Source: Octopus sinensis
Taxonomy: Eukaryota
NCBI RefSeq assembly: GCF_006345805.1
Contig: NC_042998.1
Location: 53,134,001-53,198,000 of the forward strand
DNA: 64,000 bases
Direction of reading: 5' to 3'
This document shows, piece after piece, positions 23,699 to 63,604 of the stretch. Position 1 is the stretch's first letter. Every line of letters begins with the position of its first letter. Both the position numbers and the translations under genes were made by a program. The notes under the pieces are model-generated. The model saw only the letters and a program-made list of their open reading frames with translations. It did not search any database and was not told the DNA's origin.

Positions 23699-24452
23699 TG
23701 TGTGCAAAGGAAATTCTGACAAACAACATGATATTTAAATGTATACTTACATGATTGCAATGTAAAGAAGCTTTATGCTTCATTTCATATCAAATTAATG
23801 CCCTACAGATTTTTATCATTAAATCATTGCTTTTTCTATCAAGACACAAAATATTGAAAGGTTGAGTCAAAAGTACAGAATCCAAGTACAAACTTATATA
23901 TATATGTATATATGCATGTTCTTAATTATTGATATTACTTTAATTGCTTCCGAAAGTATACACTTCAATAATATAAGTGCATATAACTTTAGTTGATGGT
24001 ATATCATTTCAGCATACATGTTTCATGACTCTTAGATTTCTATACGATTGATATGCAAGCCTTGAACTTTCTTTCATCTGTAAATTGTATGATATCTAGT
24101 CTTTGAACGTTTATCCAAATATTAGGTTTCCATGATATACATACATACACACACACACACACATATACATACACACACACACATATACATACACACATAT
24201 ACATATGCACACACACATATACATATACACACATATATACATACTTAAATATATATACATACATAAATATATACATACATAGGTATGTTGCATCACCTAT
24301 TTTGTTATGTCATGCTTTGTATTAAAAAATAAGCTATAAATGTGGTTCAATCAATGTGTTGGTTAATCTGTGGTTTTCTCCATTTTCTAATTATATGCAT
24401 ACAGAAATATACATACCTACATACATACATATATATAATTAGAAATATTGCA

Positions 24453-24840
24453 TTTCTAAATCTCTTAGAGAGACTTAAACAGTAGCAGCATGATAAAGTG
24501 ATGGTTTGTTGCCAACTTAATGTGGCAGTCCCATGAAAGGGAAGAATGCTGCTGCTATTTAACCTCAGGAAACACTGTTTACAGTTGGCTAAGTGACACA
24601 AGCATTCTGTGTCCTTAAGTTTCCAAACAGGGGAGATAAGCACCTACACCCAGCAAAGCCAGCATCCAGAATTCATTTCGCTTGAAATTCTATAAATTTT
24701 CAATTGCAAATAAGCATTGACAGCTAGCAAGCCAAGCTACTCCAGACTGATGAAGAGCAATAACTCTGAAACTAGTCTCTGAATGCTGGCTTTGCTGGGT
24801 GGACGTGCTTATCTCCCCTGTTTGAAAATATAAGGACATA
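24453..24840. mobile_element. Fold-back Penelope-like/retrozyme element
   Basis: 24608-24670 is the inverted repeat of 24778-24840. Homologous to the 361-bp unit at 38989-40006 (tttctaaatctct, gtcctta, ggggaga). Confidence 0.75.
24743..24781 (+). ncRNA. Minimal type-I hammerhead ribozyme, canonical core
   Basis: caga-CTGATGA-agag-caataa-ctct-GAAAC-ta-GTC-tctg. Palindromic ACTAGT stem III, GUC triplet. Confidence 0.85.
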
Positions 24841-26949
24841 AAATACACCTGTTAAGGTGAATTGATATAGAGAGAGATTTAGAGTAGTGTAAAATACAAT
24901 TATAATTAAGGGTATACAGGAAACCATGCCTATGCCCTTAATTATAACAGCATTTTATACAATAATAAATCTCTATATATGTATATCTATATATTCAAAG
25001 GGCGTTTTGAGGTTCCACTCACAAGACATTGATTAACTTGGGGCTTTCATTGAAGACACTTGCCCAAGATAGCATGCAGTGGGACTGAACCCAAGACCAT
25101 ATTGTTGGGAAGCAAGCTTTTTAGCCACAAAGTCACACATGAAGAATATGCAATATTTTTGTCTGGAAATAATTTTGTAGATTCATGGTGACTGAGTAGT
25201 TATTGTTGCTGCTAAATCCCAATCTGGCACTAATCAAGCAAACATATAATCTAAAATTTTCCAGATGTGACCACCCAGTCATTTTTTTTTTGACGATATA
25301 GAATACTCTATCTAATGCACCCTTATTCAGGGTGTAATTTAAAGAAAGTTTTTGACTGCCATCTCCACTAGGGGCCAACAGACAGTAGCTCTCTTGTTGG
25401 ATTGTGATATCTGCATAGGATCAGTACATAAGTTAAGTTAAGTTAAGTTAATTTTTTGGAAGTCATATCCTATCACTGGCACAATAATGTATCTTTGGAC
25501 TAACCATTAGCTAATTTTTTGTTATTTTTTTTTTACATTTTACTGGAAATAATTAGACCATATCTAAAACAGGCCTGCTAATAAAGCTTTCACTAAATTA
25601 CTGATTGAATTAGAACACAGGTAATGAATTCTACCAAACTCAACTTAGCTTGTCCAAATTTACAAATAGTTAAGAAATGCAGAAATGTGGCAGACTGGCT
25701 GTGATTGCCATGGAAATTGCACCATTGCAGAAAAATTTGTGTCAAGAACTATATCATTACTATCGATAGAACAGACTCCAGACATTAAATCTTGACTCAT
25801 TTCTGCTTTATGACACTATTTATTTCACTATAAGTAATAGATATAGTACATATGTTGTGTGAAATCTTGTAGCAACTTATATTCAGAACAATATAGCATG
25901 CATTATATTACCTTTACTGGATACATTACCTTGGCATCTACTCATAAACAAGTCTGTACAACATAGTAATAGCTTCACTTTGAAATTGTGAACCCTATTA
26001 TATATATATATATATATATCAGCTGTGATCTCTCTGTCACCTAAACTGTTCATCAGCTTTCACTTTATATAATGTTTAAAGTTTGAAGGCTAACTCCAAT
26101 CTAGATGAGAACATATATAATACTACCTTATTGCGGTTGACAAAGTTGTTAATAATATAACAGATAAAAAGTATAAGAAAGAGTATAAGCATTTTAAGAG
26201 ATTAAAGAAAATAAATACATAAATAATCTAAATAATCAATACAATGCATCATTGGAAATATGATAAACTGGATTATAATGGATAGGATGATATTTTATAC
26301 AATAATCCTGACCTGATGAATATTTTTTTGCAATATAAGCACATTAATATATTTTGAATATAAACAGATTAATATATCTTTAGAATGATAAAGACTGAAT
26401 TTTGTCTAAAAAATTAGTAAACTCACATTAAAATGGAAATTATAATTTTTATGGTATTCTCACAAATATAATATTATACACCATGTGTATGTGTATATGT
26501 GTGTATATATGTTTGCATCTGTTCTGTTCTCTGTTGTTTTTGTCTTTCTTTTCCTTCTTCACAATGTACAGCTAATGATAGATATATACACACACATATA
26601 AACAAATATACACTTATCTTTTTTATGTACTTAAAATTATAGCTATCGAGAAATATATGATGAATATTTATTAAGAGCGATAGCAATACAACACTATGAA
26701 TGATTTCTATACAGATTTCATTTTCTTTTGTCTTCAGTTTCCCCTGCAAACTTTGTTAGGTTATGTAGAATCAGGACATTTGCATTTTGGTTCACAGACA
26801 GCTGACTTTTGTCTTCATTCATTAATGTATTCATGTACACACACAAATACACTCACACAAGCATAAATACATACACACAATTCATTTCAAAATGAACAAT
26901 TTGAGATTGAAAATGTATTTATACATACATAAATGTATGACTGTATGCA

Positions 26950-27619: not shown

Positions 27620-28715
27620 TGTTTCTTTATTAGCCACACAGGGCTGCACACAGATAGAACAAATTACAAGGTAGAGCTTTTCTTTTGAAGGTTTAAAAAA
27701 AAAGGAAGGGGGAGTTTCGATCAAAAGGGATCGTAAAAGGAGAGAAAGAGGACAAAAAGAAGGGGGGTTAAAAAAAAAAAAAAAAGGGGGAGAGGAAAAA
27801 AAAATTGATCAATAGGGATCGTTATCACAGAAATGTCAATATGAAGTGTAAAGGGGAGGACAGGTGAGGTTTACCCGTGGAAAGAAAAGCCTACGGAAAA
27901 GACCACGGTAACCTCGGTCAATGAAGTCACATTTTATATGTCTTTTTTTTTTTTTTTTTTTTTTTTTGCAAATAAGCAACTCTCTGTTTTCGATTTCTGG
28001 GTTCATAGGACTATGCTCAAGGTGGCTTCGTCATTCATATGTGCCATTCTTGCTACATTCACCCATCTTTTTTTAAAACATTCGCTAGACAAAACTTGCC
28101 TCTCTACTCTCACTTTCCTTTTCAAGTGGTACTTGAAGAAGTTGATGAGAGATTGACCAGAGAGGAAAGTGTTTGTCTCCAATCCTTTCAGACGCGTCCA
28201 CCAGATACATTCTTTCGCCATAGCCACAAGGATGATGAAAATAGCTCTTCCTTCCCGTTTGAAGGAAGGAGGCGTGACAATATTGACGATAGACTCAGCT
28301 GATAAACCGACTCGTCCCACATGTGACAGCAGTTGTTTGACATAAGCCCACAGGTCGGAAATTGTTGGACACTGAACGAGTGCATGCAGAACGGTTTCGT
28401 CGCTCTGACCGCATCTCGGGCAGGTCGGCCCCGTGTTTCTCGAGCCGTGTCTGTAGAGCTTATCCCGAACGGGTAGCGCTTCTCGGTAGCACTGCCAGGC
28501 CAGGGATCTCTGGAAGTTGTCCATGGGCCCTGGCCCGAAAGTCGTCCCGAACAGGCGGGTCAGGTACTCCTCGTCGACGTCCAGGTTCGCCCCGAGCTCG
28601 TCGTCGTACCTCCCCTCCACTAAACCCCTATAGAATGCTTTGGTTGTGTTGAAGTCACTTAAGGTCGACCCAGGACGGCAGAGTTGCTTGAGAGCAACGC
28701 GACACTCGCGGTGCC
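27619..28715 (-). mobile_element. 5'-truncated Tx1/L1-clade LINE inserted in (GATA)n
   Basis: ORF2 C-terminus plus 3'UTR ending aataaagaaac. Long (GATA)n arrays on both sides. Confidence 0.85.
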
Positions 28716-38140: not shown

Positions 38141-39216
38141 GAGTATATGTATACATACATATATATATATATGCATACACATATATATACATATATATAC
38201 CTATATATATACATACATATACATACTCATATGTACATACATAGTATACATACATATACATACATACACATACATACATACATATACACACATACATATA
38301 TATATACATACATATTTATATATACATACATACATATATATATACATATACATATATATACATACATATATATATATACATACATATATATACATACACA
38401 CATATACATACATATATGTATATACATACACATGCATATATACATACATATATATATGTATGTATATATATACATACATATACATACATGCATATAATTT
38501 CAGATGCATGTACAACCAAGAAAGAATATTTTTGCTTATAAATATAACTAAAAAGAAATCAAAGGTTGCTGAGAAAACACAAATAAGATGCACAATAAAG
38601 AGCAGTTTGGTCTGTTTTATTACCAACATAAATTTCACATTGCACTTCAATAAAAGCATTATATAATAACATCAAAGGACTTAGAAAAAAAATCAGCTGA
38701 GAGTGAACAATGTCATAGGTACTTTTCAGCAAATTTCCTTCTGATGTGTCCAATATTGTTCCGGATTCATTTGAGTTAGGAACTAATTTAACTAAAACAA
38801 CTATATCAGATACAGGTATATCTGTGTGGCTAAAAGAGTCCCTTTGTAATCAAATGGTTTTGGGTTTGATCCTTTAAATTCCTTTTTTTCCCCACACTAT
38901 GGTAACTTAGGTAGGTGATTTTTACTGTAGACTTGGATTGGCCTCTATCTTTTGAAATGGTGTGGAAGGTTGTCATATATATATATATATCAGAAATACT
39001 AAATTTCTAAATCTCTCATAGAGACATGTACGATGGTGGGGCGATAGAATGGTTGTATACTGTCAATCTAACACGAACGTGACAGTAGGGGAGTATACCA
39101 CCACTGTATAGCCCTAGGAAGCATCAACACCTCCTGATGGCTTGGACACATTTTTCCTGTGTCCTTATATACATTTACGAAGGGGAGACAAATACCCCCA
39201 GCCATCTGGGCTGCAT

Positions 39217-39259
39217 CTAGGGACACGTGTTTCAGGATGATTGTCCTTCATCGGCCTAG
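39217..39259 (-). ncRNA. Hammerhead-fold motif, variant core CCGAUGA
   Basis: Minus strand: ctagg-CCGATGA-agga-caatca-tcct-GAAAC-acgt-GTC-cctag. Confidence 0.75.
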
Positions 39260-39577
39260 AGTAGCAGACACCGGTCAGCTGACGATACCTGTCTCAACTC
39301 GTAATGTATATATCTAAATTTCAGTGAAGTCTATTCACTGATTATCAAAATCAGAAGTACTAAATTTCTAAATCTCTCGTAGAGACATGTACGGTGGTGG
39401 GGCGATAGAATGGTTGTATACTGTCAATCTAACACGAACGTGACAGTAGGGGGGTACACCACCGCTGTTTAGCCCTAGGAAGCATCGACGCCTCCTGATG
39501 GCTTTGACACATTTTTCCTGTGTCCTTATATACATTTACGAAGGGGAGACAAATACCCCCAGCCACCCGGGCTGCAT

Positions 39578-39620
39578 GTAGGGACACGTGTTTCAGGATG
39601 ATTGTCCTTCGTCGGCCTAA
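39578..39620 (-). ncRNA. Hammerhead-fold motif, variant core CCGACGA
   Basis: Minus strand: ttagg-CCGACGA-agga-caatca-tcct-GAAAC-acgt-GTC-cctac. Confidence 0.75.
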
Positions 39621-39792
39621 AGTAGCAGACACCGGTCAGCTGACGATACCTGTCTCGACTCGTAATGTATATATCTAAATTTAAAAATTTAGTATTTCTG
39701 ATTTTGATAATCAGTGAATAGATTTCACTGAAATTTAGATATATACATTACAAGTCAAGACAGGTATCGTCAGCTGACCGGTGTCTGCTACA

Positions 39793-39835
39793 CTAGGCCG
39801 ACGAAGGACAATCATCCTGAAACACATGTCCCTAG
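39793..39835 (+). ncRNA. Hammerhead-fold motif, variant core CCGACGA
   Basis: ctagg-CCGACGA-agga-caatca-tcct-GAAAC-acat-GTC-cctag. Confidence 0.75.
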
Positions 39836-40000
39836 ATGCAGCCCAGGCAGCTGGGAGTATTTGTCTCCCCTTCGTAAATGTATATAAGGACACAGGAAAA
39901 ATGTGTCAAAGCCATCAGGAGGCATCGATGCTTCCTAGGGCTAAACAGCGGTGGTGTACCCCCCTACTGTCACGTTCGTGTTAGATTGACAGTATACAAC

Positions 40001-40041
<41 letters not shown>

Positions 40042-48489: not shown

Positions 48490-48930
48490 TATATTTTAAT
48501 TGTTTAAGTTATTAGACTGTGGTCATGCTGGGACACTACCTTGAAGAATTTTTAATCAAATGAATCAACCCCAGTACTTATTTTTTGAAAGCCCAATACT
48601 AATTCAATCAGTCTTTTTTGCCAAAACACTAAGTTACAGGGACATAAGCACAACAGCACCAGTTGTCAAGCAGTGGTGGGACACACACACACACACACAC
48701 ACACACATTCTACTTTCTTGTGTTCTTTTCTTTGTTTCAGTCTCTTAATTGTGGCCATGCTGGAGCACTGCTTTTAGCCAAAGAAACCGATCCCAGAACT
48801 TATTCTTTGCAAGCCTAGAACTTATTCTATCAGTTATTTTTGTCGAACTGCTAAGTTATGGGGACATAAACACACCAACATTGGTTATCAATCAATGGTG
48901 GGGGGAAAACTCAGATAGAGACACACACAC
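48490..48930 (-). mobile_element. SINE family A 3' halves (two)
   Basis: tgtggccatgctggagcact...gaactgctaagttatggggacataaacacacca. Confidence 0.75.
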
Positions 48931-48953
48931 ACGTGTGTATATATATATATATA

Positions 48954-49898
48954 CTATCAGAACTGGAGAAGTTTCAACTATCAGAACTGGAGGAGAAGTT
49001 TCAGGTGTGGAAACAAGGATTAGAATCGAAGGGCCTTAGAGTCAACCTAGCCAAAACCAAAGTCCTAATAAGTAGGAAGGTGGACCAACCACAAACGACT
49101 TCAGGTAGATGGCCCTGCTCGATCTGTAAAAAAGGTGTAGGTAGAAACTCTATAAGGTGCACCAAGTGTAAGCTATGGACACATAAGAGGTGCAGCAATG
49201 TCAAAGGTAGGCTAACTGGGAAGATAGTTTTCGTATGTGGCAGATGCTCAGGAACAATAAACACTGGAAATGTGCAGAGACCAACTTCTACCACGTTCCA
49301 GGGAGACAAACTAGAAGTAGTTGATAGCTTCTACTACCTAGGAGACCAAGTTAGTAGCGGGGGTGGGTGTGCTGAAAGTGTAACTGCTAGAGTAAGAATA
49401 GCCTGGGCAAAGTTTAGAGAGCTCTTACCCCTGCTGGTGACAAAAGGCCTCTCGCTCAGAGTAAAAGGCAGACTTTATGATGCATGTGTACGTACAGCCA
49501 TGCTACATGGTAGTGAAACATGGGCCGTGACTGCTGAGGATATGCGTAAGCTCGCAAGAAATGAAGCCAGTATGCTCCGATGGATGTGTAATGTCAGTGT
49601 TCATAATCGTCAGAGTGTAAGTACCTTGAGAGAAAAGTTGAACCTAAGAAGCGTCAATTGTGGTGTGCAAGAGAGACGGCTGCGCTGGTATGGTCATATG
49701 ACGAGAATGGCTGAAGATAGTTGTGTGCAAAAGTGCTACATCCTAGCAGTTGAGGGAACCTGTGGAAGAGGTAGACCCAGGAAAACCTGGGACGAAGTGG
49801 TGAAGCACGACCTACAAAGTTTAGGTCTCACCAAGGAAATGACTAGAGACCGAGACCTATGGAAGTATGCTGTGCGTGAGAAGACCTGGCAAGACTAG
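48954..49898 (+). pseudogene. RTE ORF C-terminal third (end of RT, PHD finger, thumb/C-terminal region)
   Basis: GLRVNLAKTKVL, LEVVDSFYYLG, AMLHGSETW, RRLRWYGHM, GRGRPRKTW, DRDLWK. No YADD motif or endonuclease (truncated). Confidence 0.9.
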
Positions 49899-50179
49899 TC
49901 AGGCCATAACCCGTGGCCCCTACCTGGGACGTAGTCAGTCCACCTGTGCATACCTTCCTTCTTGTGATACTTGTGAAGACCTGTTGAGGCAAGTGAAAAT
50001 CAAACAAAATCAAAATAGATGAACATCAATGGAATTTGTATCCTTGTGGTATCAGTGCCGGTGGCACACAAGAAAACCATCCGAACGTGGCCGTAGCCAG
50101 TACCGCACCGACTGGCCTCCATGCTGTGGGCACGTTACAATCACCATCCAATCGTGGCCGATCGCCAGCCTAATCTGGC

Positions 50180-50836
50180 TCCTGTGTCGGTGGCACATAA
50201 AAAACACCATCTGAGCGTGGTCGTCTGCCAGCCTTGTCTGGCACCTGTGTCGGTGGCACATAAAAACACCATCCGAACGTGGCCGTTCGCCAGCCTCGTC
50301 TAGCACCTGTGTCGGTGGCACATAAAAATAAAAAACACCATCCGAGCGTGGTCGTCTGCTAGCCTTGTCTGGCACCTGTGTCGGTGGCACATAAAAACAC
50401 CATCCGAGCGTGGCCGTTCGCCAGCCTCGTCTGGCACCTGTGTCGGTGGCACATAAAAACACCATCCGAGCGTGGTCATCTGCCAGCCTTGTCTGGCACC
50501 TGTGTCGGTGGCACATAAAAAAAAAAACACCATCCGAGCGTGGTCGTCTGCTAGCCTTGTCTGGCACCTGTGTCGGTGGCACATAAAAACACCATCCGAG
50601 CGTGGCCGTTCGCCAGCCTCGTCTGGCACCTGTGTCGGTGGCACATAAAAACACCATCTGAGCGTGGTCGTCTGCCAGCCTTGTCTGGCACCTGTGTCGG
50701 TGGCACATAAAAACACCATCCGAGCGTGGCCGTTCGCCAGCTTCGTCTGGCACCTGTGTCGGTGGCACATAAAAACACCATCCGAGCGTGGTCGTTCGCC
50801 AGCCTCGTCTGGCACCTGTGTCGGTGGCACATAAAA
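50180..50836 (+). repeat. 62-bp minisatellite, about 10.5 units, in the RTE 3'UTR
   Basis: cacctgtgtcggtggcacataaaaacaccatccgagcgtgg[ccgttc/tcgtct]gccagcct[c/t]gtctgg. Confidence 0.95.
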
Positions 50837-51004
50837 TCACCCACTACACTCTCGGAGTGGTTGGCGTTAGGAAGGGCATCCAGCTGTAGAAACACTGCCA
50901 GATCTGACTGGCCTGGTACAGCCTTCGGGCTCCCCAGACCCCAGTTGAACCGTCCAACCCATGCTAGCATGGAAAGCGGACGTTAAATGATGATGATGAT
51001 GATA

Positions 51005-62655: not shown

Positions 62656-62829
62656 TATATATATATATATATATTATCTAATTTAGTTTGATTTGATGCT
62701 CTGAAAGTTAAAGTTTCATGAGCCTCTAACAGAAATCTGTCTCTTTGAGGCTTAGATTACTGAATGGAGAAAAACTGTTAGCTCAAGATGTGTGTGAATA
62801 TCTCTTTAGCAATATATATATAAGCAATA

Positions 62830-63068
62830 ATAAATCTCTGAACGAGATATAAACAGTAACCGCTCGACAACGTAAGGTGTACTAGCCATCTGAATGTGGC
62901 TAGCCACTGGGGGTGGGGTGTTACTGATGCTTTTAGCCCCAGGCGATCAACGTCACCAGATGGACTTTAGACACTATCTCAGTGCCCTTGTGTTATTTGC
63001 AAAGGGAGGTCATCCTCCCTGAAAGACCTAAGTACTACATACGGACTATAGTTTCAAGGTAATTGCCT
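62830..63068 (-). mobile_element. Truncated member of the 24.5-kb / 39-kb hammerhead-element group
   Basis: taaatctct start and tttagccccagg motif shared. Minus strand agg-caatta-cct-t-GAAAC-tata-GTC; the CUGANGA box is lost at a (TA)n junction. Confidence 0.55.
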
Positions 63069-63604
63069 ATATATATATATATATCCGGTGTGAAGGGTCT
63101 ATGTATGCAATGCATGCACTGCATGTCTAGCTATCTTTCCACGATAAATAATTTTAGTGTAATATATAATTGATTACTAATAATTTTCACTAGATTCAGT
63201 GTAGTGATATTTATTTTTATTTTGCATTCCTTCATTTCTTAGTATGAAGTGTTCAAGAAAAAGAAAGACAAAGGAAAGCAAAGTTTTTACTGCTTGCTTT
63301 CAGTCATAGAAAGAGCAGTGACCAAACAAGAGAAAGAGAGAGAAGGCAGATATTTTGCTGCTTGTCTTTCATCTGTGTTAAGCAGCAGACACATTGTCAA
63401 CTTTTTTTCTCTTGAAGTGCTGTTGTTTTTACTGTCCTGTGCAGCAGAGATCAAAAACTTGCCTATTCGGAAGACTTTTTCTGAGGCTTTCCTCATAGTC
63501 GGACAGATTTAGACAAGAAATATTTAGTCAATTTACAAGTTTCTTTTATTGCTTTCTGATATATTTTGTATGATTATTCAGTACCAAAGAGTACACATTC
63601 TATC

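Follow-up and report, generated by a model that had tools for sequence, protein, structure and literature searches.

A Retrozyme-Type Hammerhead Repeat of Octopus sinensis: Census of Truncation Points Around the Cleavage Site and a LINE at a Fixed Upstream Position

Introduction

A 64,000-nucleotide stretch of the Octopus sinensis genome (contig NC_042998.1, positions 53,134,001 to 53,198,000; hereafter the window, with positions counted from its first letter) carries a hammerhead ribozyme motif next to an inverted partner copy that begins at the predicted cleavage site. A first-pass annotation of this locus proposed that the cDNA had run to the 5' end of a self-cleaved RNA, such that the junction would record cleavage in vivo. 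Does the junction carry this meaning, or can the arrangement be explained by the way in which the repeat is copied and inserted?

Animal retrozymes are non-coding tandem hammerhead repeats of comparable size, with mussel monomers described at 350-390 bp (PMC7229834), and a preprint describes a proposed derivation from the terminal repeats of Penelope-like elements (PLEs) (bioRxiv 10.64898/2026.07.22.740005). According to published descriptions, PLE insertions carry an inverted 5'-truncated partner and a tail at one end, and are biased toward (TA)n (PMC8557442), while both DNA strands are cut and extended and reverse transcription starts at internal sites (PMC11167929). The analysis below covers the window insertion, its relatives across the genome, and a LINE that was met upstream of many of the hammerheads.

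The Window Insertion and Its Repeat Families

The motif at 24742-24782 (plus strand) contains the complete CUGANGA...GAAA...UH core together with stems I-III, as is typical of a type I hammerhead. Stem I is formed by 24742-24746 and 24778-24782; the core CTGATGA (24747-24753) is followed by stem II (AGAG/CTCT around the loop CAATAA, 24754-24767) and GAAA (24768-24771), and the GTC ends at C24777, after which cleavage is predicted. Stem III of the window copy is a 2-bp palindrome, ACTAGT, for which a self-duplex energy of -6.2 kcal/mol was computed; such short palindromic stems are the form reported as dimer-dependent (PMC4209133; PMC6765202). The earlier term canonical is loose for a motif with a 2-bp palindromic stem III and for a 39-kb family whose core is mostly CCGAYGA. 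No hammerhead family appeared among the 150 of 156 Rfam matches listed, which were microsatellite-driven miRNA and snoRNA hits; z-scores from single-strand folding were not significant, and no ORF of at least 120 aa was present at the insertion.

The insertion consists of two arms. The inverted arm (24437..24670, minus strand) spans monomer positions +1 (to +3) to ~234, and its 3' end coincides with the second preferred end of the family, beside a (TACA)n/(TA)n run (24400..24436) that is the likely insertion target. The sense arm (24669..24838, plus strand), which holds the sole hammerhead and has its first 2 nt in common with the inverted arm, covers monomer positions ~247-355 and continues from +1 to ~61. 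Read as its reverse complement, the left arm starts TCTGGATGCT at 24670; it aligns with the right arm from 24778 onward, and the resulting inverted repeat (24604-24670 versus 24778-24844) extends over 67 nt at 88%. The annotation's statement that the partner starts exactly at the cleavage site is therefore right in its coordinates and letters, but the junction bears 2 nt of microhomology (GA, 24669-24670), and for this reason the 5' end of the left arm is placed at +1 to +3 rather than uniquely at +1.

Relatives were collected from the whole genome (2.7 Gb, 13,516 contigs). The hammerhead-core pattern gave 730 matches, as opposed to 1 for a reversed control, and the motif is thus far above chance expectation. 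From genomic copies of the family at 24.7 kb (family 1), a non-coding monomer of 355 nt was defined. Sampling of this family with four patterns downstream of the cut covered 220 loci (L031-L250, duplicates included; part of the listed matches) and yielded 301 arms in 185 loci, or 299 once near-duplicates were removed. An inverted partner is found at the 5' end of 184 of the 301 arms, the arms being joined 5'-to-5'. The 3' ends of the 299 arms fall largely into two classes, with 110 at 168-180 and 105 at 228-245 (preferred positions ~178 and ~233), and a TA run lies next to the 3' end in 128 of them. Both ends belong to these classes in 43 of 91 inverted pairs, comprising 38 mixed, 5 both-early, and 0 both-late pairs; the remaining 48, each with one other end, were left out of the count. 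The excess of mixed pairs has a P of 8e-8 under independence, a value that the pattern-based sampling may inflate, although the same does not apply to the zero count of both-late pairs. Non-majority letters common to two arms of one insertion occur at 0.018/nt, compared with 0.007 between loci (77 pairs).

The 39-kb family is represented in the window by two tandem 361-nt monomers (38989..39682, minus strand; cores CCGATGA and CCGACGA) and an inverted partner arm (39679..40006, plus strand), with a junction away from the cut site and a 3' end in (TA)n. Its monomer is homologous to the 355-nt monomer over the whole length, and 39 of its arms, sampled from the first 30 among 354 matches, use the two 3'-end positions of the 355-nt family. 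Some arms exceed one monomer length in both families. Partial tandems, an inverted 5'-truncated partner, a tail at one end, and a microsatellite target are accordingly all present, as in PLE-type insertions. A third and more distant relative lies at 62812-63075 (minus strand; 68% over 132 nt); it is 5'-truncated inside the ribozyme loop and has (TA)n on both sides.

As a hammerhead repeat, the flagged element is unremarkable and belongs to a class already known, the retrozyme type. In common with the metazoan non-LTR retrozymes described so far, it has a tandem monomer of ~355 nt, low GC, a type I hammerhead, a dispersed distribution as monomers and dimers, and a proposed dependence on PLEs (PMC7229834; bioRxiv 10.64898/2026.07.22.740005). 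The preprint counts an element as active when it holds two or more complete hammerheads in a row, and the window copy, with a single one, falls outside that definition; in the 39-kb insertion, two lie in tandem and their core is a variant. Circular monomer RNA is known for retrozymes (PMC7229834); the repeat is described here from genomic DNA. Inverted two-arm insertions and a resident site-specific LINE, treated below, also set it apart from the non-LTR retrozymes as these two sources describe them (PMC7229834; bioRxiv 10.64898/2026.07.22.740005).

Truncation Points at the Cleavage Site

A pile-up of 5' truncation points at the base after GUC was the check proposed for the cleavage reading. 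The 5' ends of the 299 arms are instead almost flat across the monomer, an outcome that the annotation itself had named as contrary to its proposal. Exactly one of 151 passages over the cut ends at +1, and this one is the window copy. Between -1 and +2, 6 ends were observed where 3.1 (global) or 4.0 (local) were expected (P 0.09-0.22). Among inverted arms only, the same interval holds 5 ends against 1.75 expected (P 0.033) with the window copy, and 4 against 1.75 (P 0.10) without it. Widening the interval to +/-10 nt gives 25 ends, compared with 16.3 by the global expectation (P 0.028) or 21.7 by the local one (P 0.27). When junction microhomology is taken into account and the window copy is left out, intervals compatible with +1 are found at 2 of 77 inverted junctions versus a mean of 2.45%; both carry 4-9 nt of microhomology, and 42% of monomer positions score as high. 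None of 20 passages in the 39-kb family has its end at -1..+2. The first genome search seemed to show an accumulation at query position 226, which is an artefact of the query's own junction, and the 30 loci concerned were excluded from the 5'-end counts.

In total, ~143 of the 151 passages continue beyond -5; the templates were therefore mostly uncut or re-ligated. The proposal that the window-copy cDNA reached the 5' end of a self-cleaved RNA can draw on the position of the arm's 5' end (+1 to +3), on the inverted-arm excess obtained when the window copy is counted, and on the self-cleavage and circularization described for related animal retrozymes (PMC7229834). It is opposed by the single end at +1, by the junction frequency without the window copy, by the empty interval in the 39-kb family, and by a PLE study, which reported that uncleaved RNA predominates as the substrate in vitro and that none of the RNA-seq reads end at the cut (PMC11167929). 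We consider it improbable that the window junction is a footprint of cleavage in vivo, and as a family-wide effect this reading is largely refuted. The census is a clean negative: a cleavage footprint is not supported as a property of the family, while a small excess of ends near the cut persists in some intervals. With templates that were probably mostly uncut or circular RNA, the window arm that starts at the cut is likely a chance truncation.

Stem Covariation and Core Variants

The annotation had further claimed that compensatory changes between the families point to selection on ribozyme structure, and the letters on which it relied (39-kb stems AGGA/TCCT and CTAGG/CCTAG, loop CAATCA) were confirmed. 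In an alignment of 14 motifs, 80.7% of stem cells pair, compared with 64.4% after shuffling, and 8 of 11 pairs vary on both sides; pairing reaches 90.9% in stem I and 58.9% in stem II, where five rows are badly aligned. At the family level, a 9-family test had included two families picked after their pairing was seen, and a 7-family rerun was relied on instead. Here, stem I holds 32 of 35 pairs versus 22.7 when permuted, with 4 of 5040 permutations as high, whereas the inner part of stem II holds 16 of 21 versus 14.1, with 288 of 5040 as high; both permutations are blind to kinship. Permutation at the family level with three clusters was uninformative, at a P of 0.16. The core-proximal pair of stem II is unpaired in 9 of the 14 aligned motifs (five rows imperfect) and in 6 of 9 structure-anchored family representatives.

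These pairing patterns show covariation in stem I across families and support selection on it at that level; for stem II, they speak weakly for selection, and the core-proximal pair is not kept. Single copies decay, with an undamaged core retained in only 55 of 124 family-1 passes, and any selection would therefore act on source lineages rather than on genomic copies. In the 39-kb family, the core is mostly the variant CCGAYGA (12 of 14 motifs read) and not CTGANGA.

A LINE at a Fixed Site Upstream of the Hammerhead

The strongest accumulation of 5' ends in the census lies at -58..-55, with 11 ends versus ~2.2 expected. Upstream of these ends are A-rich LINE tails, preceded by an ORF2 C-terminus or belonging to ORF1-like zinc-knuckle elements, and 13 arms end at 300-325, most of which then continue into the 5' ends of those same LINE elements. 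In the window, the corresponding site is empty (24721..24737, plus strand; monomer 299-315); in other copies, the LINE junction falls at its first base and the stretch is duplicated. Pfam matches to RVT_1, zf-RVT, and zf-CCHC (the ORF1 zinc knuckle) are above cut-off, whereas the AP-type endonuclease match, Exo_endo_phos PF03372, is under its curated cut-off at E 2e-4 on a 132-aa piece; PF03372 is carried by many database relatives of the LINE. The nearest solved proteins are L1 ORF2p. From its domains and behavior, we take the LINE to be Tx1-like.

Association with the repeat was also measured from the LINE side. Searches with LINE-only 3' fragments covered the best 40 of 813 and the best 40 of 165 candidates, with 30 loci examined for each, and gave 59 distinct LINE loci. 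Among these best-scoring candidates, 39 pass without interruption into a hammerhead repeat, and in 13 a short piece of the target comes next and then the 5' end of another LINE, such that 52 of the 59 3' ends are accounted for; the other 7 are unplaced, 2 of them beginning with the target motif. Omission of the two queries and of four loci met from the repeat side leaves 46 of 53. A relaxed core was detected downstream of the LINE in 32 of 59 windows and in 0 of 59 control windows.

Several repeat families that differ in their stems serve as hosts. The junction precedes the core by 26-27 nt in families 1 and X and, by eye, also in family Y; in the 39-kb family (L276), it occupies the aligned position, 34 nt before the core. 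Occupied sites are a minority, as 100 of 113 family-1 arms run through, and in the unrelated-looking family X, the LINE tail was found by eye at the matching offset in 4 of 24 copies. At L377, both flanks of a 5,046-nt LINE are preserved with a 17-nt duplication; both flanks with duplications were also found at L378, L227/L039, L454, and L460, with some loci showing 14-17 nt. The LINE thus has a fixed insertion site, with target duplication, in a multicopy target.

Several further features were noted. Several ORF1-only derivatives of the LINE (L227, L039, L182, L445-L464) measure 1.7-1.8 kb and are 70-85% alike; full-length copies are frequent among them, and at the target site they are arranged in tandem arrays. 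At L454, L449, L459, and the family-1 left junctions, the 5'-side target duplicate often has common variant letters that differ from the 3'-side copy, which suggests that the LINE RNA may bring along some upstream target sequence. Within the window, a 5'-truncated L1/Tx1-like sister LINE (27622-28715, minus strand) retains a 283-aa open C-terminal stretch and a similar 3' end, with 65-72% similarity to the hammerhead-targeting LINE over short stretches. On both flanks it is bordered by (ATCT)n and not by a hammerhead repeat; it is possibly a microsatellite-specific family and fits a lineage with switchable targets. Among distant LINE relatives in metagenomes, no convincing hammerhead was seen downstream in the 22 of 80 loci that were checked, most of the relatives being 25-48% identical and without a 3' end, and one weak core-like match lay at 2.3 kb.

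Composite Insertions and Likely Spread of LINE Pieces

LINE pieces also occur within inverted insertions of the Penelope style (L381, L373, L386, L457), and the LINE thus likely hitchhikes on the repeat. These composites end at the preferred 3' ends of the repeat, and in L381, the LINE tail is present on both arms. The simplest reading is that a composite RNA would be copied from the start sites of the repeat, through an uncut ribozyme, and into the LINE. Upstream of 20 long ORF2-LINE loci, a sense repeat was found in 2, an inverted arm in 3, and none in 15, a check made with family 1 as the only reference and in which one locus ran to the edge; of 20 ORF1-only loci, ~7 have a sense repeat directly upstream.

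In trees, the LINE tails cluster by host family, with 1 change versus 4.7 shuffled (26 rows) and 3 changes versus 9.5 shuffled (28 rows), unassigned loci being left out of both. This clustering limits the number of independent insertions that can be claimed and fits either a preference that co-diverged with the hosts or amplification of composites. It could mean that the junctions trace back to a small number of old insertions, a single one for each LINE subfamily and repeat family, which were multiplied as composites by the pathway of the repeat itself, with a weak or historical specificity. The 15 long ORF2 loci without a detected repeat upstream of the truncated LINE, the 3 with an inverted arm, and the two LINE tails of L381 are in keeping with such a history. 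However, two or more types of LINE join several repeat families at one offset, the ORF1-only tree interleaves families X, Y, V, and family 1 with starred branches that force 3 changes, and the LINE-target-LINE arrays (13 of 59) require re-insertion at that very site. Moreover, even a few founders at one homologous position imply specificity. We therefore regard a purely historical origin of the junctions as unlikely and favor targeted insertion of the LINE.

Mobilization of the Repeat and the LINE

The PLE dependence of the repeat is inferred from the architecture of its insertions. A motif scan, tblastn, and inspection detected no PLE ORF (RT plus GIY-YIG) beside any arm at loci L001-L390. 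The genome does contain a young PLE with an RT followed by a C-terminal GIY-YIG, represented by 150 matches at 99-100%. Many of its copies (L391-L420) do not differ across the 107-aa query, open frames reach 850 aa, inverted pairs are frequent, and its cysteine linker would make it Neptune-like. In the one locus set against the monomers, no similarity to them was seen, and downstream of the ORF, no hammerhead core was found in the 21 of 30 loci at which the ORF end was located. A PLE with a terminal repeat matching the 24.7-kb family was thus not found in the loci examined or in this one young PLE family.

Could the hammerhead repeat then be the LINE's own terminal repeat, with an L1/Tx1-type ORF2 moving composites and solo repeats alike and no PLE protein involved? 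Nearly all LINE 3' ends examined do continue into the repeat or a target piece, the composites do end at the repeat's preferred 3' ends, and the matching PLE is missing from the loci searched. Nevertheless, most repeats have no LINE (100 of 113 family-1 arms and 20 of 24 family-X copies run through), an otherwise continuous monomer is split by the LINE and carries a duplication, and the sister LINE with a like 3' end sits in (ATCT)n. In addition, insertion in (TA)n from two starts on two strands is described for PLEs (PMC8557442; PMC11167929). We therefore consider a terminal-repeat origin very unlikely.

We think it likely that the flagged locus is a ~355-nt non-coding two-arm insertion of the retrozyme type, probably copied by a PLE RT from mostly uncut or circular RNA, in which the start at the cut site is probably due to chance, and that the LINE at its one fixed site is probably targeted there. 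In this scheme, a Penelope-like RT/GIY-YIG protein would nick both strands of a TA run, and on each of the two strands, reverse transcription would begin at a different internal site of the repeat RNA. Extension of both cDNAs would end at random points, and the products would then join, often via microhomology. The hammerhead would cleave as a dimer and free monomers that may circularize, and this would produce no genomic pile-up at the cut. The AP endonuclease of the LINE would make its nick at a CA..CTAGC-like sequence that precedes the core, and the inserted LINE would be co-transcribed with the repeat. The composite RNA would then be copied from the sites at which copying of the repeat begins, past the ribozyme in its uncut state, and on into the LINE, which would leave 5'-truncated LINE pieces at new TA sites.

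Some observations weigh against this preferred scheme. The right arm of the window insertion stops at ~+61, which is not a preferred end, and a sense repeat directly upstream was found at only 2 of 20 ORF2-LINE and ~7 of 20 ORF1-only loci. Composite amplification alone could yield the clustering of LINE subfamilies by host family. The slight near-cut excess in some windows, the endonuclease match under the Pfam cut-off, and the failure to find a matching PLE count against it as well.

More speculatively, three layers of parasitism can be imagined, a possibility to which we attach only modest weight. A Tx1-like LINE specialized on hammerhead retrozymes, inserting 26-27 nt before the core, would be transcribed by its host repeat, and the hammerhead, 56 nt downstream, would trim the LINE RNA to a 3' tail that matches the target and could serve the next insertion. 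Penelope-type machinery would move the retrozyme and the LINE alike, and tandem hosts would release circular RNAs that contain the LINE. Such a target-matching tail would resemble that of R2 in rDNA, except that the ribozyme would be the target's.

Relation to Known Elements

The repeat resembles the PLE pLTRs with minimal hammerheads in its palindromic stem III, partial tandems, inverted partner, two 3' ends, and (TA)n, as these are described (PMC4209133; PMC8557442; PMC11167929). It differs from them in that an RT/GIY-YIG ORF is absent from all copies examined, and in that its two 3' ends lie ~55 nt apart, whereas a tail of 30-40 nt is described for the pLTRs. The census, made in a family that is non-coding, also provides genomic support for a PLE-type mechanism in which two internal sites are primed, on opposite strands, and the ribozyme is read through; this bears on the mobilization of animal retrozymes.

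Described targets of Tx1-clade LINEs include the Tx1D DNA transposon (Tx1L), U2 snRNA genes (Keno), and microsatellites (Kibi and Koshi) (PMC4494074; PMC6719617; PMC4640811). With target-specific Tx1 LINEs, as described, the octopus LINE shares an ORF1 zinc knuckle and an ORF2 with RT and C-terminal zinc motif, as well as a fixed 3' junction in a multicopy target and arrays at the target, the latter described for Utopia; for their AP-type endonuclease, the octopus LINE gives the match below cut-off noted above. Unlike the known members as described, it has as its target a ribozyme-bearing retroelement, which it enters at homologous positions in several families that have diverged, and it appears to be carried onward by the pathway of its host repeat, its likeness to Tx1 being one of domains and behavior. 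A published description of a LINE with hammerhead repeats or the terminal repeats of PLEs as its target was not found in a literature in which subscription papers and Repbase Reports were thinly covered, and a prior database note is possible. The main text of an octopus survey with L1-Tx1 and Penelope families does not contain the words "hammerhead," "ribozyme," or "target" (PMC13282606). A LINE that keeps to a set distance from the hammerhead in retrozyme families that have diverged would add a new class of target. If such targeting is true, the system would make it possible to ask how the specificity of an endonuclease keeps up with a target that drifts, and whether a host ribozyme can be borrowed for the processing of retroelement RNA.

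Elsewhere in the window, a tandem array of a 62-nt GC-rich unit (~11 copies) occupies 50142-50841, adjoined by a 342-aa RT-like open stretch at 48870-49898.
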